Counted from the stretch's first letter, positions 1-22,567 are shown. The stretch: 61,503 nt of DNA from Minisyncoccia bacterium (GCA_044356725.1 JBIKVS010000006.1:1-61503); one strand, 5' to 3'. Notes: a model not told the origin generated them from the sequence alone. A program made the numbers and translations.

Positions 1-3000
1 AAGCCCAAAACATTAAGACAATAGAATCTCTTCCTGTAAAGAAAGCAGATACAAAGCTTAGCAAAGCAATCGTAGCAAAGATAAAGTGAGGGATGAATAA
101 ATACAAACTATTCTCTATAACTTGTTTAGCTGCTCCCTTTGGAGTTACTTTATATTTGAGATTCTTTCTTCGTAATACTCCTATCAAGGCTAAGAAGAAT
201 ATTGGCCATGTAGCAATACTGATAACTCTTCCTGCCCATAGCATTCCCCTCTCTTCATTTGGCCTTACATTGAATTTCTGTAGCCAAAATGATATTAGCT
301 CCATAATACCAATAATAGGAAGATAGAAAGTAAGGAATGGAATTAAATCTATACGAGCAATATCTAATCCAAAGAAAAAGTATAGAATTAATCCTATAAT
401 TCCTAATACGGAGACAATCCCTGTAAAATAGTGTTGCTGTAATATGAAATAATATGCTTTTTGTCTCAAGGTCATAGACTGGAATAATTTAAAGCTATGA
501 TTAAATAGAATATCAATACATCCATATGCCCAACGCATTTGTTGGTTAAAATAGGCTTTCCATGTACTAGGTCCTTCCCCAATGGCTAATACTTCTGGTA
601 CATATACACTTTCCCATCCTTGAGCATGTAATTCCATACCCGTTATCAAATCTTCGGTAATATGCGCGGTATAATAGTTAATAGATTCTAGAGCTTTGAC
701 TCTCACAACATGATTTGCCCCAATTAGGGTATTCATTTTCATCCCATCTAATCCTCGCAATATATGTCCATAAAAATTATATTGTTTTTCTGCCGCTCCC
801 TTTGTAATATATGATGTGTCTGTATTCCCATAAATTTGTGGAGTTACCACAAATCCAACTTTAGGATTATTGAAGTATCCTAAGGTTTGGGTTAAAAAGT
901 TAGCATTTGGTATAAAGTCAGTATCTATCTGAGCAATAATATCATAGTTATGTCCATGACTATCATGCCAAGCATTATGATTTCCTCCTTTTGTCTTGGC
1001 CTTAAATTTACCTGATTCTTGGTTATAATGCTCTAAGCCATTTCGAGTAAAGTACTTTACTCCATATTGTTTACATATAGCTTGTGCTTCTTTGCTATTC
1101 CCTTCATCCAATAGCCATGTATCATGAGGATAATCTGCTGATACCATTGCAGGTAAACATTGATGTAATAAATCTATAGACTCTGAAGCAGGAACAAAGG
1201 TAGTCAAAAAGGCTACTTTAAGTCCCTTTTTAGGCTTTGGAGTTTTTCTTGTTTTGATATGAGATGCAACAAGCCAATTGAATCCAGTCATGACAATAGG
1301 ATGCCATACAATATAACTCACACCTAAAAAGAGAAGAATATCAAAGATCTGCCATATTCCCTGAAAATTATTCGGAATACGAGATAATTGAAACCACCAT
1401 ATCGCAAAGATACCAACAAAAGCAATTGCTATAGTAGATAGTATTTGATGTAATAAATTATTACTTAGAGGTGTTTTATCTAATACTTTTGCTCTTACTT
1501 TTAAGAAAGAATAAAGTGTAATTACAGCTAATATAACATTCCATACAATCCAAAATTTAACTCCCCCACCATCTGTACTCAAAACTATATCTGTTCCTTG
1601 ATTGTATATCAATATTAATAATGCTCCAAGATATACTGATACATAAACTGCGAGGATTAAAATACCTTGAGTAAATGCATTTGATATTGTTGTATGTTTA
1701 GCATTAGTTGGTATCCACGCTATACTTTTACCCATTATAACAGAAACTACTGAATGAGTACTTGCTACAATTTGAATCATTGATGCAAAAAATACTTCTT
1801 TTTTAAATGGAGTTAAATGATATAGTGGATATAATATAAATGAATAAAAAACCCATCCAAAGAATAAGAGAAATGCACCATTAAAGTTTGCTTGTTGATT
1901 ATATAAAAATAATAAATAAATTGCTTGGAAAGATAATATTAACTCTAGTGGTCTTAATACAAATGATAAAAATCCACTTATATTACATAATTTAATTTTC
2001 CAAGATAATTTTGAATTTCTAAATTCAGAAGATAGTACCAACTCAGAGCGACCTCTCACCCAACGATGCTGTTGATGAAAGTATGCATAAATATTATCAG
2101 GACACATACCAATAGCAAGAATGACAGGAATATATCTAGTTTTCCATCCATTGTTCAGTAATGCAAATCCAGTCCTTGAGTCTTCACTAGCAGTAACTTG
2201 TTTAGGTCCTCCGATACTTAATAATGCTTCTCTTCTATAGATAGCATTAGATCCACAACAAATTGCTGCATCAAATCTATCTCGGGCAACTTGTGTTATA
2301 CGATAAAATATTTCTTCTCTATAGGCTCCAGCATATGCTAATGGTGAGTTTTTATAAGAAGATTTTGATGTGTCAAAGTATTGTGGACTTTGTACTATTC
2401 CTATACTTCTATCCATCATATAAGGTAATAACTCTAATAGAAAATCTTTATGAGGAGCAAAATCTGCATCAAAAATTGTTATAAAGTCACCATCTGTTCT
2501 TTCAAATGCATATTTTAGATTACCTGCTTTTTTTGTCTCTCCTTTATTTGGTCTTTCAATATAAATGAATTCAAATTTTTCTGCTAACTTTTTATGATCA
2601 GAACATAGCTCTTTAGAATCATCTAAAACATAGACTTTTTTATTATTATACTTAATTTTAGATACATATTTCCATGTATTTTCTAGAACATCAATATCTT
2701 CTCCACATATAGGTAGATATATGTCCACAGAAGGATTATATTTACTATTCTTTGCTTTTCGAATTAATTTACTATGCTTATTTAAATCAAATTTTTTATA
2801 ACATAAATTAATTCCAAATGCGACAATATGGTAAAATGTAAATAATAAGATTAAAGGTAAAATAATATACGTATATATTATACTATCTTGGAATAACTGA
2901 AAAAAACCATATATGGCTATAAACCAAGTTATTAAACCAAATGAATAGAGTAATCGATTTTTCCAAACAGATGTTTTATTGACATATAAATATTTATCAA

Positions 3001-3037
3001 TATCAAGTGGATTAGGTAACATAAACAAATTAAACAT
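1..3037 (-). CDS. Fused double GT2: two cellulose-synthase-like processive glycosyltransferase modules in one polypeptide; 3' end lies beyond the window
   Basis: Absent from the ORF track because it runs off the left edge. Hand translation from ATG at 3037 (MFNLFMLPNPLDIDKYLYVN...) is stop-free to position 1 (>1000 codons); first in-frame upstream stop at 3092-3094. Module 1 motifs: VLDDS, FDADF, SEDSRTG, QQHRW (2060-2074). Module 2 motifs: LLDEGN, IDTDF, TEDLITG, QQMRW (530-544). Each module is followed by hydrophobic TM stretches. Confidence 0.8.
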   Translation of the reverse strand, partial: MFNLFMLPNPLDIDKYLYVNKTSVWKNRLLYSFGLITWFIAIYGFFQLFQDSIIYTYIILPLILLFTFYHIVAFGINLCYKKFDLNKHSKLIRKAKNSKYNPSVDIYLPICGEDIDVLENTWKYVSKIKYNNKKVYVLDDSKELCSDHKKLAEKFEFIYIERPNKGETKKAGNLKYAFERTDGDFITIFDADFAPHKDFLLELLPYMMDRSIGIVQSPQYFDTSKSSYKNSPLAYAGAYREEIFYRITQVARDRFDAAICCGSNAIYRREALLSIGGPKQVTASEDSRTGFALLNNGWKTRYIPVILAIGMCPDNIYAYFHQQHRWVRGRSELVLSSEFRNSKLSWKIKLCNISGFLSFVLRPLELILSFQAIYLLFLYNQQANFNGAFLLFFGWVFYSFILYPLYHLTPFKKEVFFASMIQIVASTHSVVSVIMGKSIAWIPTNAKHTTISNAFTQGILILAVYVSVYLGALLILIYNQGTDIVLSTDGGGVKFWIVWNVILAVITLYSFLKVRAKVLDKTPLSNNLLHQILSTIAIAFVGIFAIWWFQLSRIPNNFQGIWQIFDILLFLGVSYIVWHPIVMTGFNWLVASHIKTRKTPKPKKGLKVAFLTTFVPASESIDLLHQCLPAMVSADYPHDTWLLDEGNSKEAQAICKQYGVKYFTRNGLEHYNQESGKFKAKTKGGNHNAWHDSHGHNYDIIAQIDTDFIPNANFLTQTLGYFNNPKVGFVVTPQIYGNTDTSYITKGAAEKQYNFYGHILRGLDGMKMNTLIGANHVVRVKALESINYYTAHITEDLITGMELHAQGWESVYVPEVLAIGEGPSTWKAYFNQQMRWAYGCIDILFNHSFKLFQSMTLRQKAYYFILQQHYFTGIVSVLGIIGLILYFFFGLDIARIDLIPFLTFYLPIIGIMELISFWLQKFNVRPNEERGMLWAGRVISIATWPIFFLALIGVLRRKNLKYKVTPKGAAKQVIENSLYLFIPHFIFATIALLSFVSAFFTGRDSIVLMFWA

Positions 3038-3111
3038 TATTAATACTCTAAAATACTGAACATAAGTATTTTGTTGTATATTATATTTAGTTTAATTTAT
3101 ATATTACCTAG

Positions 3112-3171
3112 GCTATATACCATGATAACATTTATATCATAGCTATATACCATCATAACATTTATATCATA
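3112..3171. repeat. Two tandem 30-bp direct repeats (one mismatch), each with an ATGATA-N7-TATCAT dyad; candidate operator upstream of the double-GT2 gene
   Basis: gctatataccatgataacatttatatcata (3112-3141) and gctatataccatcataacatttatatcata (3142-3171), read directly. Located 75-135 nt upstream of the ATG at 3037. Confidence 0.85.
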
Positions 3172-3198
3172 AATTTTGTCAGAAGTCAATAGATAAAG

Positions 3199-3226
3199 TA
3201 AAAAAGCCAGCATCGAAATACTGGCT
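3199..3226 (-). terminator. Rho-independent terminator after the 3248-3757 orphan gene
   Basis: Minus strand reads gccag-tatttcgatg-ctggc followed by tttttt (plus-strand A-run 3200-3205). Confidence 0.6.
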
Positions 3227-3247
3227 TGAGCATGAAGAAATGGAAAG

Positions 3248-3757
3248 CTATTTTCGAAAAAGTTGGAAGTAGCCCTCCTCTACAGGTTTCAAAGTATTAT
3301 CCCTTTCATCTGGGACCAAGTTGATATGAAATATTGTTTTAGGGTAAAAGCTGTGTGCCACAACCACAAGGTTATGGGGATATAGCATCTTGAGCCTTCG
3401 CACGAAGTCTTCCTGCTGGAGAACATCCTTCTTCTGAACCATCGTCGCAATGGTGATCTTGTGATCTGTCATTGTGACAGCAGATACCCCATTCCCTCGG
3501 TGAGGGATGAATGATAACTGGTCTGCCCCATCATATGGAAAGTAGATACCCATATCCTTTAGCTCTGTCTCTGTAGCTCTCTTGTATACGGTTGGGCCAA
3601 CCTCAATCAGGTTAGCTTTGTCCTGAGGAAAGCACCGTACCAGAACATTGCTGTTCTGACTAACAATGATATCCTCCATTGACTCCAAAGGAATTTTATG
3701 TTCGTTGCTAACGAACAAAGAGATTACAGTGGCCTTGGCGGGAATGATGGCGGTCAT
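3248..3757 (-). CDS. Hypothetical protein, 169 aa, compositional outlier
   Basis: ORF track; no family recognised. Two 60-nt stretches I hand-counted gave about 40% and 48% G+C, clearly above the flanks. Has its own promoter and terminator. Confidence 0.6.
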   Translation of the reverse strand: MTAIIPAKATVISLFVSNEHKIPLESMEDIIVSQNSNVLVRCFPQDKANLIEVGPTVYKRATETELKDMGIYFPYDGADQLSFIPHRGNGVSAVTMTDHKITIATMVQKKDVLQQEDFVRRLKMLYPHNLVVVAHSFYPKTIFHINLVPDERDNTLKPVEEGYFQLFRK

Positions 3758-3781
3758 GATTTGGTTGAAACGAACTCTCTA

Positions 3782-3810
3782 AGTATAATATAAAATCTAT
3801 ACTTTGTCAA
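3782..3810 (-). promoter_or_regulatory. Sigma70-type promoter for the orphan gene (TTGACA-17 nt-TATACT)
   Basis: Minus strand: ttgaca (3810-3805), 17-nt spacer, tatact (3787-3782), 25 nt before the ATG at 3757. Confidence 0.5.
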
Positions 3811-3824
3811 TTAAATTAATCCTA

Positions 3825-4511
3825 TTATTTTAGGATTTTCTCAAACTTTAATTTCAATATTCCAAATAAAAGCTCAAAGTTAGTCCATAAAGTCACATTA
3901 CTTTTACCGTTTTTTCTGGCATCGAATTGGATTGGAATTTGACTAATTTGATAGCCTTGATTTTTTGCTTTATATAAAAACTCATAGTCAAAGCCCCAAG
4001 GTGTGGGATTTAAGTCTACATTTTTTAGAATTTTTTTCTTAAACACTTTCATTCCTGATTGTATATCATAAGGTAGACCTAGTAGGATTTTACCGAAGAC
4101 TTTAGCGTATATGCGGCTTAATAGTTTTCTATACCATTTAATATTCTGCACTACCCTATTGGCTACCACAATATCAAATTTTTTCATTTTGACTAACATA
4201 TCATATAAGATTTCTGGTGGATACTGTAAATCTGCATCAATCATAGCTACAGAACTATACTTTGCTTTGCTAAAACCTTCTAATAATGATTGTGCTTTCC
4301 CTTTTGCTCCTTTTTTTAGAGTAACCTTAAGGGGATACCTTCCATTAACTTGTCTTATTATATCCAATGTCCTATCTTCTGAAAAATCATCTATTATAAT
4401 AATCTCATATTTGACTTTATTTTTAGTCATATTGGAATGAATTCGTTTAATTAACTCTTTAATATTGTGTTGCTCATTATAGGTTGGGATGATAATAGAT
4501 AAATGCTTCAT
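3825..4511 (-). CDS. GT2 glycosyltransferase, polyprenol-phosphate sugar synthase (Dpm1-like)
   Basis: The ORF track entry starts at 4580 and overlaps the upstream gene. The likely start is MKHLSIIIPTYNE at 4511, 1 nt after the upstream stop. Motifs: IIIPTYNE, IIIDDFSEDRT, DADLQYPPE. Confidence 0.8.
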   Translation of the reverse strand: MKHLSIIIPTYNEQHNIKELIKRIHSNMTKNKVKYEIIIIDDFSEDRTLDIIRQVNGRYPLKVTLKKGAKGKAQSLLEGFSKAKYSSVAMIDADLQYPPEILYDMLVKMKKFDIVVANRVVQNIKWYRKLLSRIYAKVFGKILLGLPYDIQSGMKVFKKKILKNVDLNPTPWGFDYEFLYKAKNQGYQISQIPIQFDARKNGKSNVTLWTNFELLFGILKLKFEKILK

Positions 4512-4512
4512 A

Positions 4513-5997
4513 TTAGAATGTGAGTTTATACTGATATAGAATAAGGTCGGGAGAGAATTCTCTCTCTTCAACCTTTTCAAAATTATTATCTAAATATGTT
4601 TTGAATTCTTTTTCATAACCCTGATCATAGGATAAAATTACATACATATACTTATGCCCGTCTTTAATTTTATTGACCTGCTCCTCTATTTTGGAACTAT
4701 CAAATGGAGGTATAGACGATACTTTACTTCTATCCCACATTGGGAATGTCTCAACACTGGTAATACCTTGATAATAATATTCAAAAGGATATATGGTAAA
4801 TGGAGCTGATAGTACAATTACATCTCTAGCACTAGCTTTAGCTGTAAGATAGATTGCAATATCTTCAAAATTTTCTTTGACTGGAGTATAGGGACTAAAA
4901 ATCTGCAGTAATAATGATATCCCTATTATCACTATTACTCCTAAATATAATATTCTCATTTGTCTGCTAAAATAGGTGCTAATTAAATAAATAATATATA
5001 AGTATAAGAATAAAGAACTTACAATAAGATATCTAGATAAAAATATAGGCCTTAAATAACTAAGTATAAAAGCTAAACCAATTGGTATTAGGATTTGGAA
5101 TATAACAAAAGTTGTAAATACTAAATATTTTAATTTTCTTTGTAAAGAGGTGAATATTATTATTACTATAATTGGCCAACTAGATAGAATAATACTATTA
5201 ATAAGATCGGTTTGAAATCCAAATATGTATTGAGAAAATATATTGAAAAAGTCAATAGAGGTTGGCGATTGTAATACTGGCTTCGTATTAGCAGCTGAAC
5301 CAAGACTTATTACATAATAGATCCAAGGAGTTATAGATAATAGAATAATAATTGCACTAATAATAAATTTTGGAAATAAATTTTTATGAAATTGCTTATA
5401 GCTAATTAAGTAGAATAAAGCATTAGCTATTAAAAATAACCAATAAAAATAATGTGTATATATACCTGAGATTGCTGTGACTATAAATCCAATCCAACTC
5501 TTCTTAGCATCCTTTTGTAGTATATCGATGAAGAAGATGCTATTTAATACGGCTAAAAGTAGCAATAAACTATACATCCTGGCTTCATTAGCATACCAGT
5601 TAATAAATGGAGATAGTATAAAGATAATTGTAGTCATTAAAGCTATTCTTTTTGTATAAAGTTTACTAGCTAAGATATACACAAATGGAATTGAGATTAT
5701 AGATATTAGTAAGGATAAATATCTAGCCGATATAATACTATTATTAAATATACCTTGCCAAAAATGTAATATAATGTGATATAAAGGTACATGTACATCC
5801 CTGCCTACAATATCTAGTATTTCAGGAATACTATGACTAACTTGCCAAATACTTTGAGCTTCATCTAATCGTATACTATTTAAGTGTATTAATGGGATAG
5901 ATATAGCAATACTAATAAGAGTAAAGAATAGTATTGTAATCCAATCTAAATTCCATAAATTATAGCGAGAGTTTTGAATAGGGATAAACTTCATCAT
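4513..5997 (-). CDS. GT39/ArnT-like (GT-C fold) polytopic membrane glycosyltransferase
   Basis: 494 aa with many TM segments. N-terminal LDEAQSIW...DVHVPLYHIILHFW loop is typical of PMT/ArnT-type enzymes. Start overlaps the upstream stop by 4 nt (ATGA). Confidence 0.65.
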   Translation of the reverse strand: MMKFIPIQNSRYNLWNLDWITILFFTLISIAISIPLIHLNSIRLDEAQSIWQVSHSIPEILDIVGRDVHVPLYHIILHFWQGIFNNSIISARYLSLLISIISIPFVYILASKLYTKRIALMTTIIFILSPFINWYANEARMYSLLLLLAVLNSIFFIDILQKDAKKSWIGFIVTAISGIYTHYFYWLFLIANALFYLISYKQFHKNLFPKFIISAIIILLSITPWIYYVISLGSAANTKPVLQSPTSIDFFNIFSQYIFGFQTDLINSIILSSWPIIVIIIFTSLQRKLKYLVFTTFVIFQILIPIGLAFILSYLRPIFLSRYLIVSSLFLYLYIIYLISTYFSRQMRILYLGVIVIIGISLLLQIFSPYTPVKENFEDIAIYLTAKASARDVIVLSAPFTIYPFEYYYQGITSVETFPMWDRSKVSSIPPFDSSKIEEQVNKIKDGHKYMYVILSYDQGYEKEFKTYLDNNFEKVEEREFSPDLILYQYKLTF

Positions 5998-7556
5998 TTA
6001 TCTATAGTTAAATTTGAATTAATAGGCACTGTTTCAAGATATTCTATATTTGAACTTACTTTACTTTGCTGAAAGTTAGGTAAGGATGCCCTGAGAAAAG
6101 GAAATATGATTATAATATTAAGTATTATCCAAGTAATATTGGCAAAAAGCGATGCGTTTATGCCATTACTGTATAGATAGTATGAAGTTCCAATGACACT
6201 AATTGCTATATATGCAAGATGCATCCAATTAAGATGGATAAAGTTGCCTGAGACTTGTGTTTTAGATGTTATACTAAAACCATTTTTCTGCCCACTCAAT
6301 ACAGCGAATAGAGCCTGAATATGAATCATAAATGAGCTCATCGAGAAGGCCAGACCTTTGAAAGAATAGGTAAAATTACTACTTCTCTGCAAAATATACA
6401 TTACTAGATAAATATATGGGATAAAGACCAATGCAATAATCATACTAGAGTTTACTAATGGCACACTGCCAGTAAACAAGAATATAATTGGTAAAATCAT
6501 ATTGAGGAGAAATACTATACCTGAGAGATAATAGCTAGCTGAGGCTAAATATTGTAATTTTTGGGATAAAGATAAACCCCTATTGAATAAAGGGTTATAT
6601 TTGAATATTATTTCTAGACTACCTCTGGCCCATCTAAATTGTTGTTTATAATATGACATAAAGTCCTCAGGGGCTAAACCTTCTGCTAATACTTCTGGGA
6701 CATATACTGATTTCCAACCTTTAGAATGGACAAATAAAGATGTTAAAAAATCCTCTGCGATATTGGTCTCACACATACCACCAGCTTCCATAATAGCCTC
6801 TCTTTTCAATACCATATTAGTACCACACATAAAGACAGAGTTGGTTTTATTCTTACCCTTACAAATAGCTCCGAAAAACAATTCCTGTTGTCTCCAAGCT
6901 CCTTCTGTGACTAGATTCTGACTATGATTTTTATAGTATTGTGGTGTCTGTACAAATCCAACTCTTTCGTCTATAAAATAGCCCATCGTTTTTTGTAAAA
7001 AGTCTTCAGATGGAACATGATCAGCATCAAATACTACAAAGTAATCACTATCAGTATGTAATAAGGCATTATTTATGTTACCAGCTTTAGCTCCATGTGG
7101 TTTTTTTCTTGTAATACAATGTATGCCTAAATCTTTAGCTAATTGTTCAACATCTTTCCAATTATCTTTCTTCGCTACAAACCCATCATTCAATAGATAA
7201 ACTTCAAATTTAGGATAAGTCATATTCTTAGCAGCAACTGCAGTTTGTTTAATAATTTCAATTGGCTCCCCTGCTACTGTAATGAATATATCTACTTTTG
7301 GAGAGAAGTTCTTATCATATATATTAGTAGCTTTAGTATCCCAAACTGTTATAATATAGCTGATAATCTGCCATAAATGAAATATTTCTCCTACAATCAG
7401 GATACCATACAGCCAATAATTACTAGGGGTGATGAAAAATGTTATAAATATAAAGTAAATGATAGAGACTAAAGCTACTCCAATCAGTAGAGTTTTGGAT
7501 GCTTGAGTGTTATTTAGAAAAATTGTTCTAGGATTATATTGTGATGTATTCTTCAT
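5994..7556 (-). CDS. Cellulose-synthase-like processive GT2 (BcsA-like)
   Basis: Motifs: LLNDG, VFDADHVP, GTNMVLKREA, AEDFLTS (TED), QQFRWARGS (QxxRW). TM segments flank the domain. Confidence 0.8.
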   Translation of the reverse strand: MKNTSQYNPRTIFLNNTQASKTLLIGVALVSIIYFIFITFFITPSNYWLYGILIVGEIFHLWQIISYIITVWDTKATNIYDKNFSPKVDIFITVAGEPIEIIKQTAVAAKNMTYPKFEVYLLNDGFVAKKDNWKDVEQLAKDLGIHCITRKKPHGAKAGNINNALLHTDSDYFVVFDADHVPSEDFLQKTMGYFIDERVGFVQTPQYYKNHSQNLVTEGAWRQQELFFGAICKGKNKTNSVFMCGTNMVLKREAIMEAGGMCETNIAEDFLTSLFVHSKGWKSVYVPEVLAEGLAPEDFMSYYKQQFRWARGSLEIIFKYNPLFNRGLSLSQKLQYLASASYYLSGIVFLLNMILPIIFLFTGSVPLVNSSMIIALVFIPYIYLVMYILQRSSNFTYSFKGLAFSMSSFMIHIQALFAVLSGQKNGFSITSKTQVSGNFIHLNWMHLAYIAISVIGTSYYLYSNGINASLFANITWIILNIIIIFPFLRASLPNFQQSKVSSNIEYLETVPINSNLTIDK

Positions 7557-7566
7557 AGAATTGTCG

Positions 7567-8823
7567 TTATTTATAAGCTTCTACAATATCTCTCTCTGAG
7601 AGAGTAGCAAAGTAATTAGGTAGTAAATTATTATAGATAGCCAGGCCAAACCAAGCCCAGTTAGTGTCATAATAACCTAATTGCTCTCTCCATTGCTGCG
7701 TATCGCGGTTGTATAGAGGTAGTAATTTTTGTTCATAAATCTGTTTGGCAACGGTTGGATTGACAAGGGCAAAGTATCCTATATTGGTTCCAATAACTGC
7801 TGGAGAAGAGCCCTTATCTAATATTTCTCCACTATGAGAATAAGTATTATAGATATTCTCGTCAGTATTCCAGATAGATAACAAGAAATCATTGTCTTGG
7901 AAATATTGTTTAGCCCTATTATCTCCATACCATAGATAATCTAAATATAGTCTCCACATCACTCTATGAGCATCAAAACTATAATTAGTAGTAATATTAG
8001 TACTTGCAGGAGCTCGTAGTTCTCCTGTTTTTCTATCTATAATTACCCAGTCTGGGGGCAAGCCTACAGATTTATCTTTATCTAGGGGGGAAGCTGAGGA
8101 TTGATTGATTATTTCATACGAAGTATCTATAACCCCCTGCCAATCATTATTTGGATTAATAACAGCAAACATCTTATATGCATAAGGTGCATAGTAAGAT
8201 GGATTTAATAGAACAGTATCTTGATTAAATTGCTCTATATCATTAGAGGTAATATATGGCTTACCATTTATTATCACCACACTTTCATCCCAGATAGCAT
8301 TAATAATACTATCTGCTTCCAATAAATATCTAGAATCATTCCAACGAGCATAAGCGAATAGGAGAGCCATTGCAATATCTGTATCTCCATCTATAGCGGC
8401 ATTCTGTCCTCCAATATTATTTAGTACCCCATAACTACCATCTTCTCTTTCACCAAATAACCAAGCAAATAGTTTATTATCCTTCCAAAGATTATCTTTT
8501 GTCCATTGCCAACTTTTATCAAAAGTCTCTTTATCATCTTGCCAAACAGCTCTTAACATAGTATAGCTCTGCCCCTCAGAGGTAGTAATATTATCTCGCT
8601 GTTTATCTAATGTTCTGAAAGTTCCCTCTTCAATATACTCATCTTTATAACCTTCCCATAAAGACTTTAGCATTGCCTGATTTGAAAATATATAATTATT
8701 CTTAATTGAAATCTCTTTTACCCATGAGGTATCAATTAGAGTGAAAAATGTAATACCTATCAATATAATAAATACACCTATCCAGATTGTCCTATTGAGT
8801 ATGCTTAATATATTATTTAACAT
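7567..8823 (-). CDS. Glycoside hydrolase family 8 endoglucanase (BcsZ-like) with N-terminal TM anchor
   Basis: TSEGQSYTMLRAVW and AIDGDTDIAMALLFAYARW match the GH8 catalytic-region signatures. Confidence 0.75.
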   Translation of the reverse strand: MLNNILSILNRTIWIGVFIILIGITFFTLIDTSWVKEISIKNNYIFSNQAMLKSLWEGYKDEYIEEGTFRTLDKQRDNITTSEGQSYTMLRAVWQDDKETFDKSWQWTKDNLWKDNKLFAWLFGEREDGSYGVLNNIGGQNAAIDGDTDIAMALLFAYARWNDSRYLLEADSIINAIWDESVVIINGKPYITSNDIEQFNQDTVLLNPSYYAPYAYKMFAVINPNNDWQGVIDTSYEIINQSSASPLDKDKSVGLPPDWVIIDRKTGELRAPASTNITTNYSFDAHRVMWRLYLDYLWYGDNRAKQYFQDNDFLLSIWNTDENIYNTYSHSGEILDKGSSPAVIGTNIGYFALVNPTVAKQIYEQKLLPLYNRDTQQWREQLGYYDTNWAWFGLAIYNNLLPNYFATLSERDIVEAYK

Positions 8824-8881
8824 TGATTATATCTATAATAATTGTTATTAAATAACCTGCATAATTAAAAGTATCACAATA

Positions 8882-8914
8882 AACAACTTTTGTCAATAGT
8901 TGACAAAAGTTGTT
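8882..8914. promoter_or_regulatory. Perfect 15-3-15 palindrome (aacaacttttgtcaa tag ttgacaaaagttgtt): operator and/or terminator between the AlbA_2 gene and the GH8 operon
   Basis: Arms checked base by base. Contains TTGACA on both strands. Lies 59-91 nt upstream of the GH8 start and 44 nt after the AlbA_2 stop. Confidence 0.7.
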
Positions 8915-8957
8915 GTTAATTTATTTGTTGATGTCTATTTTATAGCTTAAAATAGAG

Positions 8958-9494
8958 CTATTGTTCTAAAATATCTTCTATAGAGCTTAATAAAGCCTCC
9001 TTCTTCTTTTTGACTGCTAGTTCTAATAATTCATGCATACTACTAGAATCTTGGATTAACCTAGAGCTAGCATGCTTCCTGTGATATACTCCACCTGCTC
9101 TTAATACATCTGGATAATCTCTTTTACAAATAGTCGGTACTGTAAAGAATTCATCTACTTCAAAGATTAGAAGTTTTTTATTTTCATATTCTACTTTCTT
9201 AATATTATAATGTGGTAATGGATCAAGATATAGACCTAGATGATTATCTATCCAAGTTCTATCTATACTTTCTAAATCCTCACTACTAAGTCCAACTATT
9301 ACCTTAGAATCTGACACTCCAAATATCAGCATACCTCCATTAGGCATATTAGATATAGCCGCTATATGTTTAGCTAATTTAGTCTTATTATAATCGTTGA
9401 ATTTATGCCAATTAAAATTCTCTTTAAAGTCAATATGATTGTCCTCATAACTTTCTTTGATAACTTTATCTAATAGCTCTGGAGTGTATTTCAT
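8958..9494 (-). CDS. AlbA_2 (Schlafen-like) DNA/RNA-binding domain protein, stand-alone
   Basis: IDFKENF...LAKHIAAISNMPNGGMLIFGVSDSKVIVGL matches the AlbA_2 core pattern. 178 aa, no other domain. Confidence 0.6.
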   Translation of the reverse strand: MKYTPELLDKVIKESYEDNHIDFKENFNWHKFNDYNKTKLAKHIAAISNMPNGGMLIFGVSDSKVIVGLSSEDLESIDRTWIDNHLGLYLDPLPHYNIKKVEYENKKLLIFEVDEFFTVPTICKRDYPDVLRAGGVYHRKHASSRLIQDSSSMHELLELAVKKKKEALLSSIEDILEQ

Positions 9495-9503
9495 ATAGAT
9501 ATT

Positions 9504-10889
9504 TTAATAGTAAGGCATAGGTCTTGGCATTGGGATAATCTCTGTGATACCTGTTTGGAATAAAATCAAGTATAGAGATAATATAAGTATAAACCAAATA
9601 AATTGTAAGATTACAATGGATAATGCATCGCCCCAACCTTTTCTCACCCCAATCATCATAGCAGGAGCGAGTATAATAAATGTATATAATAAGTTTGTTA
9701 TAACTGATATAAGTGAGCTAAATGTATTATCATAAATCAAAGACTGCCAGCTATTATATTGATTTAATACTATCAATATAATATTAACAATAATTAGCAA
9801 GATAACCGCACCCAAACTCACTAATATATTAGTCAAATTGAATAAATGAATAGAATTTTTATTGGCAATATTAATAGGTTTATCTTGGGTTTTATCACTC
9901 TCTTTGGAGATATTCTTATGGTTAGAGTTGATATATTTTGAGATAAGATAGATTATGGATATTATGATAACTATGACGATAATCGTAATTATAATTTCAC
10001 TCAAATATAATCTAAACCAATTTTTAGCATATTCGCCTCTTACATTAAAACTTTCATTAGGAGCTAGACTTTTAGATTCTTTTATAATGCTACCAGAGTT
10101 CCCAATATTGCTAACTAAACTATCCAACTCTCTACTAGATACAGCTGATGAATCTCCTAACTTAGCCATAGGGACGAAACCAGTCTCATTATAATTGACA
10201 AATGATTGTTGCCCCTTTAATAATAAATCGCTATCGACATCCACTGCAACTCTAATATTTTGAATTCTAGAATTAACTTTTATAGTCTCAAAGTTGAACT
10301 TATATAATCCAAAACTTTCATTTACATAACCTTTAGTAGCATAAGATAGAATAATAGCCGTAGACTTATTAGTCTCTACTAGATTTGGAAGTTTTAAATT
10401 ATAAATATTGTCTGATTTGGTATATTTGATTCTAGTGTATTCAGCTGTCTGACCCGAACCATAGTAATAATAATCCTGTCCATAATCTGGGTCTCTATAT
10501 TCTACACAAGGATTATTAGGATCAGTATAATTGTATCTAATACATTCTGGAGGTAATTTCATCTGATACATTATCATCTCAGATACATCAACCTTTGGTA
10601 TTTTAAAACTAAATTCAGTTAGAGCTTGCTCTTCCTGATTGGGGATAACTAATTTAGCATAAGTAATAGCCTCTCCATTAGCACGAAAAACCACACTATA
10701 TGAATGTTTCTGACCAAATAAAAGTGAGTTAGAAGTATCCGGGTTAATTGGTGGCATAATTCTACCAATATCTGGAGCCACTGAGCTACTACTAGCAGCT
10801 TCCTGAGCCAATAATACTCCACCAAAGTTAGCTAAAAATAGACCCAATACAAGTACTAGAGCTATAGATTTTTTGATTATTTTATACAT
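9504..10889 (-). CDS. Secreted/membrane protein of unknown function
   Basis: Signal peptide (IALVLVLGLFLANFGGVLLA), a roughly 280-aa extracytoplasmic region, then about 4 TM helices. Sits 9 nt upstream of the AlbA_2 gene. Confidence 0.6.
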   Translation of the reverse strand: MYKIIKKSIALVLVLGLFLANFGGVLLAQEAASSSSVAPDIGRIMPPINPDTSNSLLFGQKHSYSVVFRANGEAITYAKLVIPNQEEQALTEFSFKIPKVDVSEMIMYQMKLPPECIRYNYTDPNNPCVEYRDPDYGQDYYYYGSGQTAEYTRIKYTKSDNIYNLKLPNLVETNKSTAIILSYATKGYVNESFGLYKFNFETIKVNSRIQNIRVAVDVDSDLLLKGQQSFVNYNETGFVPMAKLGDSSAVSSRELDSLVSNIGNSGSIIKESKSLAPNESFNVRGEYAKNWFRLYLSEIIITIIVIVIIISIIYLISKYINSNHKNISKESDKTQDKPINIANKNSIHLFNLTNILVSLGAVILLIIVNIILIVLNQYNSWQSLIYDNTFSSLISVITNLLYTFIILAPAMMIGVRKGWGDALSIVILQFIWFILILSLYLILFQTGITEIIPMPRPMPYY

Positions 10890-11009
10890 ATTTTTATTTA
10901 GTAAATTAATACTAAATATATTATAGCATAGATTTAAAAAATTATCTCAAATTTAGGAAAAGCAAATATTCTCAGAAAAAAAACTTTTACAACTAATATA
11001 GTAGTGATT

Positions 11010-11354
11010 TTATTCGTTGTGATTTTGATTGACTTTAAAAGCAATAATTCTCTCAATCAAATCATAAGGAATGGGTTTATCGAGAGGAAATTGTACGGAA
11101 CCCTTACCCTGTTTGTATTGAGATAATTCTTGCGTAAATTGTTTATGAGCTTTAGGAGTGGCATATAGTCCAATATGATGTTCAAAGGCGGCAAAATATA
11201 CCAGAGGCTTATTATTGACTTTAAAAGCTGGCATTGCATAAGAAATACTCTCCTCAGCCTCTGGAGCTAAAGTCTTGACCAAATTATACAGTTTATTCAA
11301 AATAATTTGAGTTGATTCAGGGAATTGTGATATATATTCAGGTATAGAATTCAT
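11010..11354 (-). CDS. DUF1801 (YdhG-like) domain protein
   Basis: ISYAMPAFKVNNKPLVYFAAFEHHIGLYATP...GKGSVQFPLDKPIP is typical of the YdhG/DUF1801 family. Confidence 0.65.
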   Translation of the reverse strand: MNSIPEYISQFPESTQIILNKLYNLVKTLAPEAEESISYAMPAFKVNNKPLVYFAAFEHHIGLYATPKAHKQFTQELSQYKQGKGSVQFPLDKPIPYDLIERIIAFKVNQNHNE

Positions 11355-11441
11355 ATATTGTTAATTTACATTATATATAGTATAGCATATTGACTATATT
11401 ACTAATATGTGATTATATAATTCTGTCTTGCATTTTCAAAA

Positions 11442-12035
11442 ATGAACAGCTATTCCATTCAATTCATTGCCCAACCCCAAAGAGGGAAAGGGAGAACTTG
11501 GGAATTGTCTCAATGTTCTGATATGACCAAGGTACTGGAACGCCTAAGAAGAATACGCCAATTAGTGACTCTAATAGCAGGCCCTAATTCTGATATTCTG
11601 TCAGAACTTACTGATTGGGAGAATATTACCCAAAGCTGTAATCCAATTTGGAAAAGAACTATCACTATATCTGATTCAAGAGCATATACATTCCTCATTA
11701 ATTTGTCTAATAAGCAGGCCCTTATCACTGCAAAAAGCCAAGGGAGGCCACTTCGTAAAATCGGATTACCGAAGGCAATCGATATGGAGTCTTATCAGAA
11801 AGTAATTAGTTTTATGTATATATTCATTCGATTACTTGAGGGTATGAATAGCCCTAATGAAGAGTGGGTCAAGGATATGTCAGTTGTTCAAACTAAACCC
11901 CGTCAGGGCTGGAGTGATAATAAAGAGATAAAGCATTTATTAAATATTTTTCCCCTATTACAAGCACCTCCTCCCCCCGAGATTACCATTGCAGTCCCAG
12001 CATCTTCTTATGAGATAATTATCACAAAACAATAG
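11442..12035 (+). CDS. Hypothetical protein, 197 aa, G+C-enriched orphan
   Basis: ORF track; no family recognised. The first 60 nt hand-counted at about 45% G+C. Strong terminator follows. Confidence 0.55.
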   Translation: MNSYSIQFIAQPQRGKGRTWELSQCSDMTKVLERLRRIRQLVTLIAGPNSDILSELTDWENITQSCNPIWKRTITISDSRAYTFLINLSNKQALITAKSQGRPLRKIGLPKAIDMESYQKVISFMYIFIRLLEGMNSPNEEWVKDMSVVQTKPRQGWSDNKEIKHLLNIFPLLQAPPPPEITIAVPASSYEIIITKQ

Positions 12036-12046
12036 CCCTATCTCCT

Positions 12047-12076
12047 CACCCCGTAATTTGCGGGGTGTTTTTATTT
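12047..12076 (+). terminator. Rho-independent terminator
   Basis: caccccg-taatttg-cggggtg followed by tttttattt. Confidence 0.75.
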
Positions 12077-12131
12077 ATATAGATTTAAAGAGAGTCTCAT
12101 TTTTTTGATATTATTAGCACAAAATTTTCTC

Positions 12132-13316
12132 TCATCTCATTTCTGCAAGTTTATTTGAAAATAATATTCCAATTCGATTTGTTTTTTCATTTAGTCCTGG
12201 CATACGAGTTAGTAATAAACGTTTAATTAAATCTTGATTATCTTTAGTTAGATATCCTAAAATAAAATTTATAAATTCCTGAACTGTTGTAAAGTCTGCC
12301 AAAGCTTTCTCTCTTTCAACATTTGTCAAATAATTTTTCATTGTCTTTGCAATTATTCCTTCATCTTCCTCAAATAAAGGAATAAAACTTTTGTCAAAGT
12401 AAATATCTTCAAACATTAGTTTTCTTGGGTCAATGTTTCCGTGTAGAAAATCGTTACGATTATTCATTAAAGTTTGAAATCGCTTGAACTCATCTTTTTC
12501 ACTATCAATTGGCTTAAGGAAACCATCACAATTCAAATGTAGTGTTTTAACTCGAGTGTCAATTTGTTGTCGAATTAAATTCTCGTATAGGCGCTTATCT
12601 TGTTTAAATTCATTCTTTGATAGTAAAAGGATTAATAGGTTTACAAATGACTCAGCTAACACTGGTGTCAACATTCTAATGGTAGTTCCTAATGTAACAG
12701 CTCTTTCTGTATTAATTATCCATTGATTAAAGTTTTTGTCATACTCTGCTCGTATTTCATCAGAAGGATTTAGCTCAAGCTTTTTAATTTCTTTGATATC
12801 TAAACTTCTCAACTCCTTAATTAGCTCTTTAAGAGTATCTTGAAGTCTTGTTACTGGATTGATAAACAAAGTCCATTTTTCAAAATCTTTTTGAACTACT
12901 TTCATCTGTTCCTTATAAATCTGATAATTACTTTGAATATTATTAATTAATAAGTCCCAATTTTCTTTTTCAAAATTTACTTCATTTGGAATTCTGATAT
13001 GAATTTCAATCCCACGACTTTGACCTAAAAAATGAATTTCACTTCCATGTATGAGAAAAGTATAATGCCAATGAATTAAATTATCGGTTGTCTCCCTGTT
13101 TTTTAAGTACATAATAAGTCCGTTTGGATCACCAAATCTAGCTTTTAGTAACTTATAAAGTGTAAGTGGAGAAAGTTTTTTTGAGTCATTTTGCCAAGTA
13201 TAGAGAGGATGTGTTGTATTGTCAACATCCATCTTTTTAAGATTTGATTGAATCCAGTCAAATCCTACTGGTGTCCAATTATCAAGATTAAATATTTCAT
13301 TAATAGTAGTGCTCAT
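12132..13316 (-). CDS. Hypothetical protein with C-terminal HEPN-like Rx4H motif (candidate RNase toxin / abortive-infection protein)
   Basis: 394 aa, alpha-helical-looking C-terminal half with LMNNRNDFLHGNIDP (R-N-x3-H). The N-terminal roughly 150 aa is unrecognised. Confidence 0.45.
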   Translation of the reverse strand: MSTTINEIFNLDNWTPVGFDWIQSNLKKMDVDNTTHPLYTWQNDSKKLSPLTLYKLLKARFGDPNGLIMYLKNRETTDNLIHWHYTFLIHGSEIHFLGQSRGIEIHIRIPNEVNFEKENWDLLINNIQSNYQIYKEQMKVVQKDFEKWTLFINPVTRLQDTLKELIKELRSLDIKEIKKLELNPSDEIRAEYDKNFNQWIINTERAVTLGTTIRMLTPVLAESFVNLLILLLSKNEFKQDKRLYENLIRQQIDTRVKTLHLNCDGFLKPIDSEKDEFKRFQTLMNNRNDFLHGNIDPRKLMFEDIYFDKSFIPLFEEDEGIIAKTMKNYLTNVEREKALADFTTVQEFINFILGYLTKDNQDLIKRLLLTRMPGLNEKTNRIGILFSNKLAEMR

Positions 13317-13482
13317 AAAGTTTTTGCTAACACTTATATATACGAAGATTGGTTAGTATGTAAATATAGTAAAAATCTATACTACTTGTACTTTTTACTC
13401 CATCTTACCATCAAGTCATCTCTTTACACTCATTATATAACAAATCCCCCCAGATTGTAATCTAGAGGGATTTATCATAGTG

Positions 13483-13572
13483 TGCGCAGAAGAGGACTTG
13501 AACCTCCACGGTACTTTGTATTTTCCCACAAGCACCTCAAGCTTGCGTGTCTACCGATTCCACCACCTGCGC
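13483..13572 (-). tRNA. tRNA-Leu (anticodon GAG), long variable arm, no encoded CCA
   Basis: Hand-folded: acceptor GCGCAGG/TCTGCGC, anticodon stem CAAGC/GCTTG with loop TTGAGGT, T-arm GGAGG-TTCAAGT-CCTCT, roughly 21-nt variable region. Confidence 0.85.
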
Positions 13573-13616
13573 TTTTATTAGAGTTTCGGTTTTACTCTAA
13601 TATTTTTAATTGATAA

Positions 13617-14027
13617 TTATTCAGCTGATTGAACTTCTGTTGCTGGAGTAGCTTCAACAGCTTGATTTCTAGTTGATTCTGTAGTGATAACTTTTTTAGC
13701 CTTTTCTTTTAGGCGATATTTTTTACCGATTGCATTTCTTAGGTAGAATAGTTTTGCTCTTCTAACTTTGTTATGTTTTAGAATTTCAACTTTTGCAATA
13801 TTAGGAGAATATACAGGAAAGATTCTCTCGACACCTACTCCGAGTGATACTTTTCTAACTGTAAAAGTAGCTGAAATATCAGTTTTAAGATGCTTAGCAA
13901 TTACAGTTCCTTCGAAGACCTGAATTCTTTCTTTACTTCCTTCAATAACTTTTTGATGCACTCGAACTGTATCTCCAATATTAACTGGTTCGAATGGTAA
14001 CTCTGTAGGTGTAGCTAGTGTACTCAT
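13617..14027 (-). CDS. rplS: Ribosomal protein L19
   Basis: [28 protein letters not shown]...RRAKLFYLR is a typical L19 sequence. Confidence 0.9.
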
Positions 14028-17212: not shown

Positions 17213-17815
17213 TTATCGCCTATTCTTAAAGGCAGCAATGAGGGTGTCTTGGTCTACATATTCGAGTAAAGTCCCATTAGCTAGTCCCCTACCGAGGCTA
17301 CTGATATTACCGCTAAAATCTTTCAACTGTTGTCTTATGTATTGGGCTGTTCTATCTCCTTGTGCGGTGGGGCTGGTGGCTATTATTATGTCTTGAATAT
17401 GTTCGGTTTTAATTCTATGTAATAATTCACTAATATGCAAATCTTCTGGTTGTGAGGCTTTGAGCGGGTCTATGACTCCCCCGAGTACATGGTATCTTCC
17501 ACTATAGACTTCAGTTCGCTCAATTTGTAGTATATCCTCAGCATATTCTACAATACAGATTGTACCTGTGTCTCTGATTTCATTATTACAAATATTACAA
17601 GTTTCTCCCTCCGAGGTATTATAACAAATGCTACATTGCCTAACTAATGTCTTGATTTTGTGGATTTCCTTAGCTAATTTGGTAAGATAGGTTTGGTCTT
17701 GATTAATTAACCAATAGGCATATCTAGTAGCAGTTTTGCGACCTACTCCTGGTAGTTGCCGAATATCTTCAATTAGCTCATTGACTGAAGCTGGTGGAGT
17801 GATTTTACGCTGCAT
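17213..17815 (-). CDS. recR: Recombination protein RecR
   Basis: HhH (LPGVGRKTATR), C4 zinc finger (CSICYNTSEGETCNICNN) and Toprim region. Confidence 0.9.
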   Translation of the reverse strand: MQRKITPPASVNELIEDIRQLPGVGRKTATRYAYWLINQDQTYLTKLAKEIHKIKTLVRQCSICYNTSEGETCNICNNEIRDTGTICIVEYAEDILQIERTEVYSGRYHVLGGVIDPLKASQPEDLHISELLHRIKTEHIQDIIIATSPTAQGDRTAQYIRQQLKDFSGNISSLGRGLANGTLLEYVDQDTLIAAFKNRR

Positions 17816-17817
17816 AA

Positions 17818-19209
17818 CTATTCATTATTCTGTTGATGTCTATAATCTAAATTAACGAAAGTTGCATATTCTTTTTTGAATCCTAATCTAACTTTACCAA
17901 TTGGTCCATTTCTTTGTTTGGCGATGTGAATTTCAGCTATACCTTTGTTTTCTGTATCTGGATTTTCTCGCTCTTCACGGTAAATAAATAAAACAACATC
18001 AGCATCTTGCTCAATCGAACCAGATTCTCTCAAGTCAGACAGTCTAGGAATTTGTGGGGAACGGCTTTCTACCGAACGAGATAGCTGGGATAAGGCTATG
18101 ACTGGAACATTGAATTCTCTAGCTAATCCCTTGAGAGACCTTGATATTTCCGATACTTGTTGTACCACATTATCCGTACGAAGACTTGATTCCATAAGTT
18201 GTAAATAGTCTATTACAATTAAGCCCAGTTCATCCACTTCAGACATAATTCTTCTCAAAATTGCTCGCATTTTCATCACGCTACTTCCTGGACTATCTTC
18301 AATAAAAAGTTGAGATTTAGATAGAGAATCAAGAGCAGGTGCTAATTGTTCAAAGTCTTGTGGATGTAATTTACCAGTTTTCATTTTGAATAAATCTACC
18401 TTTGCCTCAGAACTTATTAATCTATCTACCACTTCTTCCTTGGACATTTCTAGGCTAAAGAAGACCGCTCCCTTGCCGGAGGTAATGGCTACATTTTTGA
18501 TAATTTCCAAAGCCAGAGAGGTTTTCCCCACTGAGGGACGAGCTGCTAATATAATAAGATTAGATGGCTGTAAGCCTCCAAGAGAATTATCTAGAGAATC
18601 AAATCCAGTTTTGACTCCTTTCATTCCAATACCATTATTATGGACATCGTCAATTCTATCAAATGCATCATGAAGAGCATCACTCATCCTGACATATTCT
18701 TGTTTTACTACCTTTTGAGCTACACTAAACACTGCTTGTTCAGCTTGGTCTAAAACTTGGTCAATTTCTTGAGTTTCATCAAAACCTAATTCTACTATTG
18801 AGGAGCCAACAGCAATTAATTTTCTTAGAGTTGATTTATGTTTAACAGTGTAGGCATAATGTTCAATATGGGCTGAGGATGGCACTAAGTCCACCAAATT
18901 AGCTAAATATTCCTCTCCTCCGATTTCCTCTAACTTTTCAATTAATTCTAATTTATGACTAATGGTAAGTAAATCTATCGGTTCTTTTTTATTAAATAAC
19001 TCTAATATCATCTGATAAATTAACCCATTTTTCTCATAATAAAAATCTTCTGGTGTGAGAATATCTACGATTTTTATCAAAACATTGGAGTCAATTAGAA
19101 TAGCTCCCAGAACCGACTCCTCCATATCCACTGCTTGAGGTGGAATTTTATTATGTAATACTGGTGACTTTTCTTTATATTCTTTAGTTGTTTTCTTTTC
19201 TCTTGCCAT
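17818..19209 (-). CDS. dnaB: Replicative DNA helicase DnaB
   Basis: Walker A ARPSVGKTS, IVIDYLQLM, LSQLSR, SGSIEQDADVV. Confidence 0.92.
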   Translation of the reverse strand: MAREKKTTKEYKEKSPVLHNKIPPQAVDMEESVLGAILIDSNVLIKIVDILTPEDFYYEKNGLIYQMILELFNKKEPIDLLTISHKLELIEKLEEIGGEEYLANLVDLVPSSAHIEHYAYTVKHKSTLRKLIAVGSSIVELGFDETQEIDQVLDQAEQAVFSVAQKVVKQEYVRMSDALHDAFDRIDDVHNNGIGMKGVKTGFDSLDNSLGGLQPSNLIILAARPSVGKTSLALEIIKNVAITSGKGAVFFSLEMSKEEVVDRLISSEAKVDLFKMKTGKLHPQDFEQLAPALDSLSKSQLFIEDSPGSSVMKMRAILRRIMSEVDELGLIVIDYLQLMESSLRTDNVVQQVSEISRSLKGLAREFNVPVIALSQLSRSVESRSPQIPRLSDLRESGSIEQDADVVLFIYREERENPDTENKGIAEIHIAKQRNGPIGKVRLGFKKEYATFVNLDYRHQQNNE

Positions 19210-19214
19210 ATTTT

Positions 19215-20909: not shown

Positions 20910-20912
20910 ACT

Positions 20913-22001: not shown

Positions 22002-22002
22002 A

Positions 22003-22557: not shown

Positions 22558-22567
22558 ATAATATAAA

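Follow-up and report, generated by a model that had tools for sequence, protein, structure and literature searches.

The window analyzed here, a 61,503-nucleotide stretch of DNA from a Minisyncoccia bacterium (GCA_044356725.1, JBIKVS010000006.1:1-61503), comes from a lake-water, Saccharibacteria-type member of the ultra-small bacteria of the Candidate Phyla Radiation (CPR). At its left end lies a gene for a tandem synthase, in which two family 2 glycosyltransferase (GT2) modules, called A and B below, follow one another in a single chain. An open frame on the minus strand extends from an ATG at position 3037 to base 2 of the window, a distance of 1012 codons, with no stop before the window edge; the ATG at 3022 is a second possible start. 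The original prediction, made from the window alone, had described a single gene of more than 1012 codons that was missing from the open reading frame (ORF) track. Both statements were borne out. The gene is absent from default ORF lists because its frame runs off the window, and a search of 5.8 billion proteins retrieved a 100%-identical full-length product of 1203 residues (P0002), encoded whole on a 4663-bp metagenome contig (L001). A 1208-residue record (P0382) is the same protein from the earlier Met, recorded in a second JGI sample, in NCBI and in Logan. The gene thus specifies a single integral membrane protein of 1203 residues (1208 from the earlier Met) with two complete, non-identical BcsA-like processive GT2 modules in series (Table 1).

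Enzymes of the channel-forming GT2 type, which produce cellulose, chitin, hyaluronan and related polymers, have been studied as single catalytic units or homo-oligomers. Pfam recognizes one GT2 domain at residues 116-329 of the tandem protein and a separate one at 700-898. The predicted motifs, DDS, DAD, SED and QQHRW in module A and DEG, DTD, TED and QQMRW in module B, were all located as named, and the D, DxD, (S/T)ED and QxxRW set that marks membrane-embedded processive GT2 synthases is complete in both modules; in this set, D binds UDP, DxD the metal and QxxRW the acceptor, and (S/T)ED supplies the catalytic base. We ran AlphaFold2 (AF2) on each module, using alignments of 112 (A) and 74 (B) natural homologs. 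The model of module A has a mean pLDDT of 93.8 and a pTM of 0.92; for module B with the C-terminal region (B+C) the mean pLDDT is 87.5, and most of the B part exceeds 90. Each module contains 2+4 transmembrane (TM) helices plus three interface helices, the layout of membrane-embedded GT2 synthases. The "about six" TM helices that had been predicted between the two GT domains correspond to four TM helices and one interface helix of module A, followed by two TM helices of module B. The claim therefore holds that both modules are complete and of the processive type, with separate catalytic sets, QxxRW motifs and TM helices.

Cellulose synthase BcsA is the closest known structure to both modules. 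When phmmer was run against all PDB chains, BcsA was the top match of module A (E 2.6e-32) and of module B (E 1e-29), and the alignments covered the GT domain and continued into the TM helices. Foldseek against the PDB likewise ranked BcsA first, for module A (9b8v_E and 4p00_A, E 7.5e-24 and 1.6e-22) and for module B (4p00_A, E 9.5e-24); these alignments span more than 520 columns, TM region included, at E 1e-22 to 1e-24, and are followed in rank by hyaluronan synthases, plant CesA and CslF6. Both modules share with BcsA the GT-A domain with its D, DxD, TED and QxxRW motifs, the interface helices and, on either side of the GT domain, TM helices that would form a channel; module B also has the FxVTxK gating loop in canonical form. 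In module B, YKVTPK aligns with the FAVTAK of BcsA, whereas module A has the longer WIPTNAK, which we infer from its position in the model to be the equivalent of the gating loop.

Neither module, judged by its sequence, is BcsA proper. The NCBIfam models TIGR03030 and NF008558 score 317.1 bits and 216.9, against cut-offs of 699.1 and 992, and identity to BcsA is about 20%. The tandem protein has two units per chain, each with six TM helices in contrast to the eight of BcsA. Pfam found no PilZ domain in the window's part of the protein (P0001) or in the last 157 residues of the full product, and c-di-GMP control is therefore not expected. No BcsB was found among the seven neighboring genes scanned, nor was BcsC seen nearby, with only about 140 bp downstream of the gene in view on L001. 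In size and layout (two TM helices, GT domain, interface helices, four TM helices; about 500-560 residues without accessory domains), each module resembles the minimal six-TM synthases, namely NodC and the Chlorella virus and Xenopus hyaluronan synthases (HAS; 7SP6, 8SMM). However, those are single modules, and at 12-15% identity and Foldseek E values of 1e-10 to 1e-13 they match less well than BcsA.

The original prediction had raised the prospect that careful alignment would reveal a lost catalytic Asp. Aligned to BcsA, these residues are intact in both modules, and they are conserved among the 112 and 74 homologs. For module A, conservation reaches at least 90% at D134, D135, D185 and D187 and is complete at E280 and D281; Q317, Q318 and W321 are invariant in module A alignment A1, and W436, T439 and K442 of the gating-loop variant are at least 90% conserved. 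For module B, the catalytic D124, E125, D185, D187, E275 and D276, the Q312, Q313, R315 and W316 of the QxxRW motif, and T445, K447 and G448 of the gating loop (B+C numbering) are all invariant. The GT-A domains also carry KAGN and CCGS in module A and KGGN in module B.

Table 1. Features of the tandem synthase gene and its upstream neighbors. Residues are those of P0002; positions are those of the window unless another contig is named.
Feature	Residues	Position	Strand	Basis or remark
5′ region of the tandem gene		3038..3227	-	Terminator, promoter-like site, repeats
Terminator of upstream 169-aa orphan gene		3227-3204	-	5′ region scan
Promoter-like site TTGACT-17-TATAAA		~3188-3160	-	By eye; under the scan's rule
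Two head-to-tail 30-bp repeats (atgatataaatgttatgatggtatatagct / ...tcatgg...cc)		~3112-3171		Between promoter-like site and start codon
Module A	1-515	1478..3022	-	Complete BcsA-like synthase: 2 TM, GT-A domain, interface helices, 4 TM
Module A TM1-TM2	19-73	2804..2968	-	Hydropathy; AF2 helices 19-44, 48-73
Module A cytoplasmic GT-A domain	80-310	2093..2785	-	Pfam PF13641, PF00535, PF13506
Module A DDS		2615-2623	-	Coordinates verified
Module A DAD		2462-2470	-	Coordinates verified
Module A SED		2180-2188	-	Coordinates verified
Module A QQHRW (QxxRW acceptor-binding motif)		2060..2074	-	In interface helix 2 (helix, residues 311-330); aligned with BcsA QRIRW
Module A TM3, TM4, interface helix 3, TM5, TM6	341-514	1481..2002	-	AF2 helices 341-363, 380-401, 409-429, 448-475, 486-514
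Module A gating-loop variant WIPTNAK	436-442	1697..1717	-	Between interface helix 3 and TM5 (AF2)
Fusion junction, four-residue turn DKTP	515-518	1469..1480	-	Between A-TM6 and B-TM1
Module B	516 to ~1045 (516-1007 in window)	2..1477	-	Second complete BcsA-like synthase
Module B TM1-TM2	519-586	1265..1468	-	AF2 B+C helices 4-28, 40-71 (519-543, 555-586); hydropathy
Module B cytoplasmic GT-A domain	603-815	578..1216	-	Pfam PF13632, PF13641, PF03552
Module B DEG		1100-1108	-	Coordinates verified
Module B DTD		917-925	-	Coordinates verified
Module B TED		650-658	-	Coordinates verified
Module B QQMRW		530..544	-	Aligned with BcsA QRGRW
Module B TM3, TM4, interface helix 3, TM5, start of TM6		2..469	-	AF2
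Module B gating loop KYKVTPKG, FxVTxK type	956-963	134..157	-	Aligned with RFAVTAKD of R. sphaeroides BcsA
TM6 end, anchor TM, acidic linker, C domain		Beyond window, L001 2460-4523		P0002 sequence
Anchor TM (13th TM helix)	1047-1068	Outside window		AF2
Acidic Pro/Ser/Thr-rich linker	~1072-1114	Outside window		Disordered in AF2
External C domain, small alpha/beta	~1115-1203 (~90 aa)	Outside window		AF2
Dpm1-like GT2		3825-4580	-	Upstream neighbor
PMT_2-type GT-C		4513-5997	-	Upstream neighbor
Third, single BcsA-like synthase		5994-7556	-	27-32% identical to A or B
Glycoside hydrolase family 8 (GH8) glucanase		7567-8823	-	Upstream neighbor

A gene of this kind could also arise as an assembly or sequencing artifact that joins what are really two adjacent genes; the window ends within the gene, and all other contigs that bear it are short (4.4-4.7 kb). 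We examined the integrity of the frame on assembled contigs, not raw reads. Logan contigs from lake-water runs X1-X4 (four samples, four studies) tiled window positions 1-3300 with zero differences. Single contigs crossed the module junction in each of X1, X2 and X3, and the junction sequence was identical in these independently assembled contigs and in two JGI assemblies. A 4731-bp contig from a separate study (X5) is about 95% identical to window 1-2443, and locally less; it too has an intact junction, with differences across 1250-1850 that are all substitutions, and a pair of 1-nt indels separated by 8 nt cancel each other, so that the frame is kept. The 49 substitutions listed for this variant, a partial list for which the counts hold, touch 44 codons and change 18 residues, mostly I/V, F/L and D/E, with no stop, which points to purifying selection on the fused frame. 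Moreover, no in-frame ATG, GTG or TTG lies ahead of the first TM helices of module B; lacking a start codon of its own, the module is therefore made only as part of the fusion. We consider an artifact extremely improbable. The original prediction had advised a check for frame breaks at about 1250-1320; none was found in the contigs, and the junction itself proved to lie elsewhere, at 1469-1480.

The contigs also differ in where they end. The whole gene is present on L001 (4663 bp), the P0382 contig (4604 bp) and the X1 contig (4469 bp), each of which stops about 110-140 bp past the stop codon, whereas the assembly that gave the window breaks off within the gene. These end points suggest that a repeat or strain-variable boundary lies directly downstream. 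The X5 variant contig extends about 1.7 kb further downstream than these three. Two small runs of unknown library type, X14 and X15, gave short contigs, 95-99% identical, within window 1626-3127. These cover module A only (plus 90 nt 5′ of the start codon in X15) and have zero coverage of module B; the X14 fragments span 1626-2800, and although X14 surfaced as kind "rna", it is unusable as expression evidence. At its 5′ end, the gene has its own promoter-like site, which follows the terminator of the 169-aa orphan gene.

The two modules are joined by a very short linker. The DKTP turn lies in a cytoplasmic, Lys/Arg-rich tail, KVRAKVLDKTP. Derivation of this linker from the 5′ untranslated region of a B gene was considered and rejected, as the tblastx match 5′ of the start of P0004, a related tandem synthase, was AT-rich and of low complexity, with in-frame stops. 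From TM parity, the positive-inside rule and BcsA homology, we infer that the N terminus and both GT domains are cytoplasmic and that the C domain lies outside; the K/R-rich loops, hydropathy and AF2 helices agree with this topology. The C domain had no Pfam match at E ≤ 10, and its PDB profile matches, all unrelated, were no better than E 0.02. A LysM-like beta-alpha-alpha-beta assignment was dropped, being unsupported by both searches. The domain does recur in P0003 and P0004 (51-52% identity) and in B-C proteins, P0035-37 (29-34%).

The original prediction left open whether the modules are paralogous duplicates or differ in origin. Because modules A and B are only 29% identical, they are not recent duplicates and are of different origin. 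Module B shares 74-78% identity with the B modules of P0003 and P0004 and 57-61% with its counterparts in about 30 other Saccharibacteria-type proteins, and all of these relatives have the opposite order, B followed by an A-type module that we call A′. In maximum-likelihood trees, the B modules of P0003 and P0004 form the sister group of the window's module B (WIN_B), at an SH-like support of 100. As the P0004 contig (L002) is syntenic with window 1-14000, the B-C part was inherited vertically.

Module A has different relatives. It is 58-60% identical to stand-alone CPR synthases of about 510-555 residues, in records named Zambryskibacteria, Gottesmanbacteria, Paceibacterota and others, and equally close to the A part of fusions with other C-terminal halves (A-X), whereas its identity to A′ modules is only 38-44%. 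In the maximum-likelihood trees, the window's module A (WIN_A) groups within the clade of stand-alone and A-X proteins (SH-aLRT 98-99), separate from a clade that unites the A′ modules (98). Since the path from WIN_A to the A′ module of P0003 is roughly ten times that between their B modules, the A module appears to have been replaced rather than co-inherited. By these comparisons, the A-B fusion is an event separate from the common B-A′ fusion.

The B-A′ tandem synthases (P0003-P0032) are the nearest relatives of the window's protein in design: a B-type and an A-type module are fused, and their B modules are orthologs of the window's at 57-78% identity. P0003 and P0004 additionally share the C-terminal anchor and external domain, and a syntenic locus. 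They differ in the order of the modules, in the lineage of the A module and in the linker between modules, which is about four residues in the window's protein and about 45 in P0003. Each module type also exists free-standing, at about 510-560 residues, in other CPR bacteria.

Tandem fusion of two such synthases had been called uncommon. This was correct for bacteria as a whole: in a HMMER search of 1.84 billion representatives at 50% identity, four of the best 150 were tandem (P0002 and three B-first clusters), and P0002 alone among those 150 had the A-then-B order with an A module of the CPR stand-alone type. It did not hold within Saccharibacteria, where B-A′ tandem proteins form at least 30 clusters at 90% identity, with one copy in a closed genome. 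Tandem synthases are therefore not unique, being rare across bacteria and common within Saccharibacteria in the B-A′ form. What is distinctive here, from the alignments, is the reversed order and the non-orthologous A module. The closed genome, CP025011 of 'T. rhizospherense', bears a B-A′ gene, and the accompanying paper says only "capacity for biosynthesis of cellulose" (PMC6031116). In full-text literature searches we came across no account of channel-forming synthases in tandem or of the B-A′ family.

To describe how A- and B-type synthases are arranged relative to one another, we searched one genome per GTDB species with a B profile, kept 80 loci and typed the modules around each B. An A-type partner lay within 6 kb of B at 41 of the 80 loci. 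Nine of these were fused, eight as B then A′ (five in Saccharimonadota, including CP025011) and one, a dubious case (L042), as A′ then B. Twenty were adjacent: 14 in the order A then B (nine in Actinomycetota, often 4 nt apart), five as B then A, and one divergent. At the remaining 12, the A-type gene was near, within 6 kb; no A-type gene was present within the flank at 39 loci. Pairing is thus frequent, not obligatory. Among the pairs, L004 has stand-alone B and A genes as divergent neighbors and L005 has overlapping genes, B then A, with a glycoside hydrolase family 16 (GH16) gene beside both. Many Patescibacteria, like many Actinomycetota, have A- and B-type genes next to each other, and these frequently overlap or are separated by 4 nt, which makes the two types a conserved gene pair in other CPR lineages as well. 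Because A- and B-type genes share a neighborhood repeatedly, are likely to be translationally coupled and have been fused in both orders, the encoded proteins appear to act together, and the two enzymes probably work as a pair.

L042, a metagenome-assembled genome (MAG) of Actinomycetota, was rejected as a true A′-B fusion (5878-8853). Its stop-free frame joins the last 340 residues of A′, a spacer and B, with the first 180 residues of A′ out of frame; the MAG looks long-read-derived, and the join is probably a long-read indel artifact. Actinomycetota B-type synthases, including those of the cultured Galbitalea soli, Nanopelagicales and Streptosporangiaceae, are 44-52% identical to module B (GTDB loci L033, L035, L039, L042-L049, L055, L057, L059-L067, L072, L076 and L077). 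In these bacteria an A′-type gene usually lies directly upstream of B, and saccharibacterial A′ resembles Actinomycetota A′ more than it does the CPR stand-alone A. Actinomycetota are the hosts of cultivated Saccharibacteria, and the resemblance hints that genes may have passed between Saccharibacteria and actinobacterial host lineages.

How might a protein with two such modules work? We lean toward the view that it is a covalent two-channel synthase pair that would extrude two glycan chains side by side. Each module would bind a UDP-sugar, extend its own chain at the (S/T)ED base and pass that chain through its own channel. The fusion would fix the two synthases in a 1:1 ratio, and the two chains would leave the membrane adjacent to one another at the cell surface, where the tethered external C domain may guide or anchor the product. 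Since the modules are 29% identical and the two types are conserved separately across phyla, the two chains probably differ. From the GH8 gene of the cluster and the GH16 genes beside other pairs, our guess is that the products are of beta-glucan type. An analogy is plant CesA, where three isoforms per complex place non-identical channel-forming GT2 synthases together and chains emerge side by side. However, CesA isoforms are close paralogs that assemble non-covalently through plant-specific regions and make one polymer, whereas the modules described here are covalently joined and 29% identical.

The CesA precedent is also an argument for a different outcome, in which A and B produce one and the same homopolymer, such as a beta-glucan, and the fusion doubles output or forms a two-chain fibril as a minimal terminal complex. 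CesA isoforms of differing sequence all make cellulose, BcsA is closest to both modules in sequence and fold, and the cluster includes a GH8 gene. Nevertheless, the GH8 gene adjoins the third synthase (5994-7556) and not the tandem gene, and A and B, at 29% identity, have been kept distinct across two phyla. They also differ near the substrate: module A has DDS, CCGS and KAGN where module B has DEG, IGAN and KGGN with a 20-residue insert. We regard a shared polymer as unlikely, yet as the most serious of the alternatives.

A third outcome would be one alternating heteropolymer, made through one channel as the two GT domains add sugars in turn. Class II HAS (PmHAS) and K4CP (2Z86) have two GT2 GT-A domains per chain and set a precedent for one domain, one sugar. 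The gene for P0123, the closest stand-alone A homolog, adjoins a UDP-glucose 6-dehydrogenase gene, so that the second sugar could come from UDP-GlcA. But none of the known two-domain polymerases, which are soluble or peripheral, forms a channel, and K4CP matches the GT core only, at a TM-score of about 0.33. In the tandem protein, by contrast, each GT domain sits in its own six-TM module (13 TM helices are predicted in all, the anchor included), and each module has its own QxxRW motif, gating loop and channel set and exists in stand-alone form. In the BcsA/HAS mechanism the acceptor end is held in the enzyme's own channel, and a BcsA-type acceptor would have no obvious path for hand-over. Module anatomy, as modeled, therefore favors two channels and two chains over one alternating chain, and we consider the heteropolymer improbable.

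Several observations weigh against a two-channel pair. That reading assumes that both modules are catalytically active, and module B has DEG for DDG and LIGAN for FFCGS, while the gating loop of module A is one residue longer. The AF2 models cover the modules singly, so that the packing of A against B and the presence of two open channels lie outside them. The B-C proteins P0035-37 have no A gene nearby, as is true of the 39 B loci with no A within 6 kb. The separate origin of module A is likewise subject to a caveat, as a tree in which WIN_A joins A′ is not rejected by an approximately unbiased (AU) test (p = 0.39).

At two motifs, DEG and LIGAN, module B departs from the BcsA consensus, and this could also mean that one module is a pseudo-enzyme that serves as a channel or scaffold. 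Alternatively, the fusion could be a recent neutral accident, as A-then-B is known from one species-level population only. However, DEG, LIGAN and KGGN are invariant across the B family, stand-alone B proteins included, and for this reason we regard the departures as a family trait rather than decay. Both modules retain all of their catalytic Asp and Glu, QxxRW and gating-loop residues, and a strain that has diverged by 5% holds the frame, with changes that are mostly synonymous or conservative. Either of these explanations seems to us quite improbable.

The preferred reading, a two-channel pair, would have consequences beyond this gene. The covalent pair, the conserved neighborhood and the fusions in both orders argue that two different synthases can act as one secretion machine. 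A single construct with two separately mutable active sites would offer a handle on the assembly of composite or multi-chain glycans. CPR bacteria, Saccharibacteria among them, live attached to host cells, and the genes described here may represent a conserved surface-glycan system in this group.

A bolder proposal, which we put forward tentatively and would not bet on, is that A and B are obligate partners in a hetero-pair that acts as a minimal two-channel "terminal complex" for a composite surface fiber of two glycans. If so, the pair would have been welded at least twice independently and in opposite orders, as B-A′ in many Saccharibacteria and as A-B here, the latter with a different A lineage and a four-residue tether. 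Bacteria would then have a first example of two different polysaccharide synthases, both channel-forming, that work together as a single machine, and structural study would gain a natural covalent heterodimer suited to it.

The glycan genes upstream of the tandem synthase vary among relatives. In L002, GH8 (133 aa), the third synthase (97 aa, 98% identical), PMT_2 and GT2 persist only as fragments, and the tandem synthase is intact; the 3′ end of the GT2 gene is duplicated on either side of an inserted gene for an 884-aa pilin-like DUF5122 protein. Two A-X fusions, P0039 and P0106, have a multi-TM C-terminal half of about 530 residues that is homologous to the window's PMT_2 gene product (phmmer 1e-22 to 1e-25 in a six-sequence set). 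This homology links A-type synthases functionally to this GT-C. No family was found for the X domain of P0044 and P0047 or for that of the B-X proteins of about 1100 residues. On the contigs of P0123 (L006, L007), a UDP-glucose/GDP-mannose 6-dehydrogenase gene follows immediately after the synthase gene, and some A-type synthases may thus use a uronic acid donor. The essential exopolysaccharide genes of Southlakia (SEML1_0081-0083) were considered as relatives and set aside, as they are of the Wzx/Wzy type, a different family (PMC10633639).

Further from the gene, window 17213-23653 contains a block of RecR, DnaB, ArgRS, M50 protease, RRF and BNR genes. In L008, L009 and L010, which are other Saccharibacteria-like genomes, this block directly flanks the B-C gene (P0035-37), and the neighborhood of the B-C synthase is therefore old and conserved. 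In the window, about 14 kb of tRNAs, orphan genes, AlbA_2 and the glycan cluster is inserted within that neighborhood. Elsewhere, the window encodes a class A penicillin-binding protein with a C-terminal Big_7 domain (31917-34697) and a TrwB-like type IV coupling protein (35910-37724), surrounded by housekeeping genes for DnaK, TatD, a LysRS/AsnRS-type aminoacyl-tRNA synthetase and M24 and M3 peptidases.

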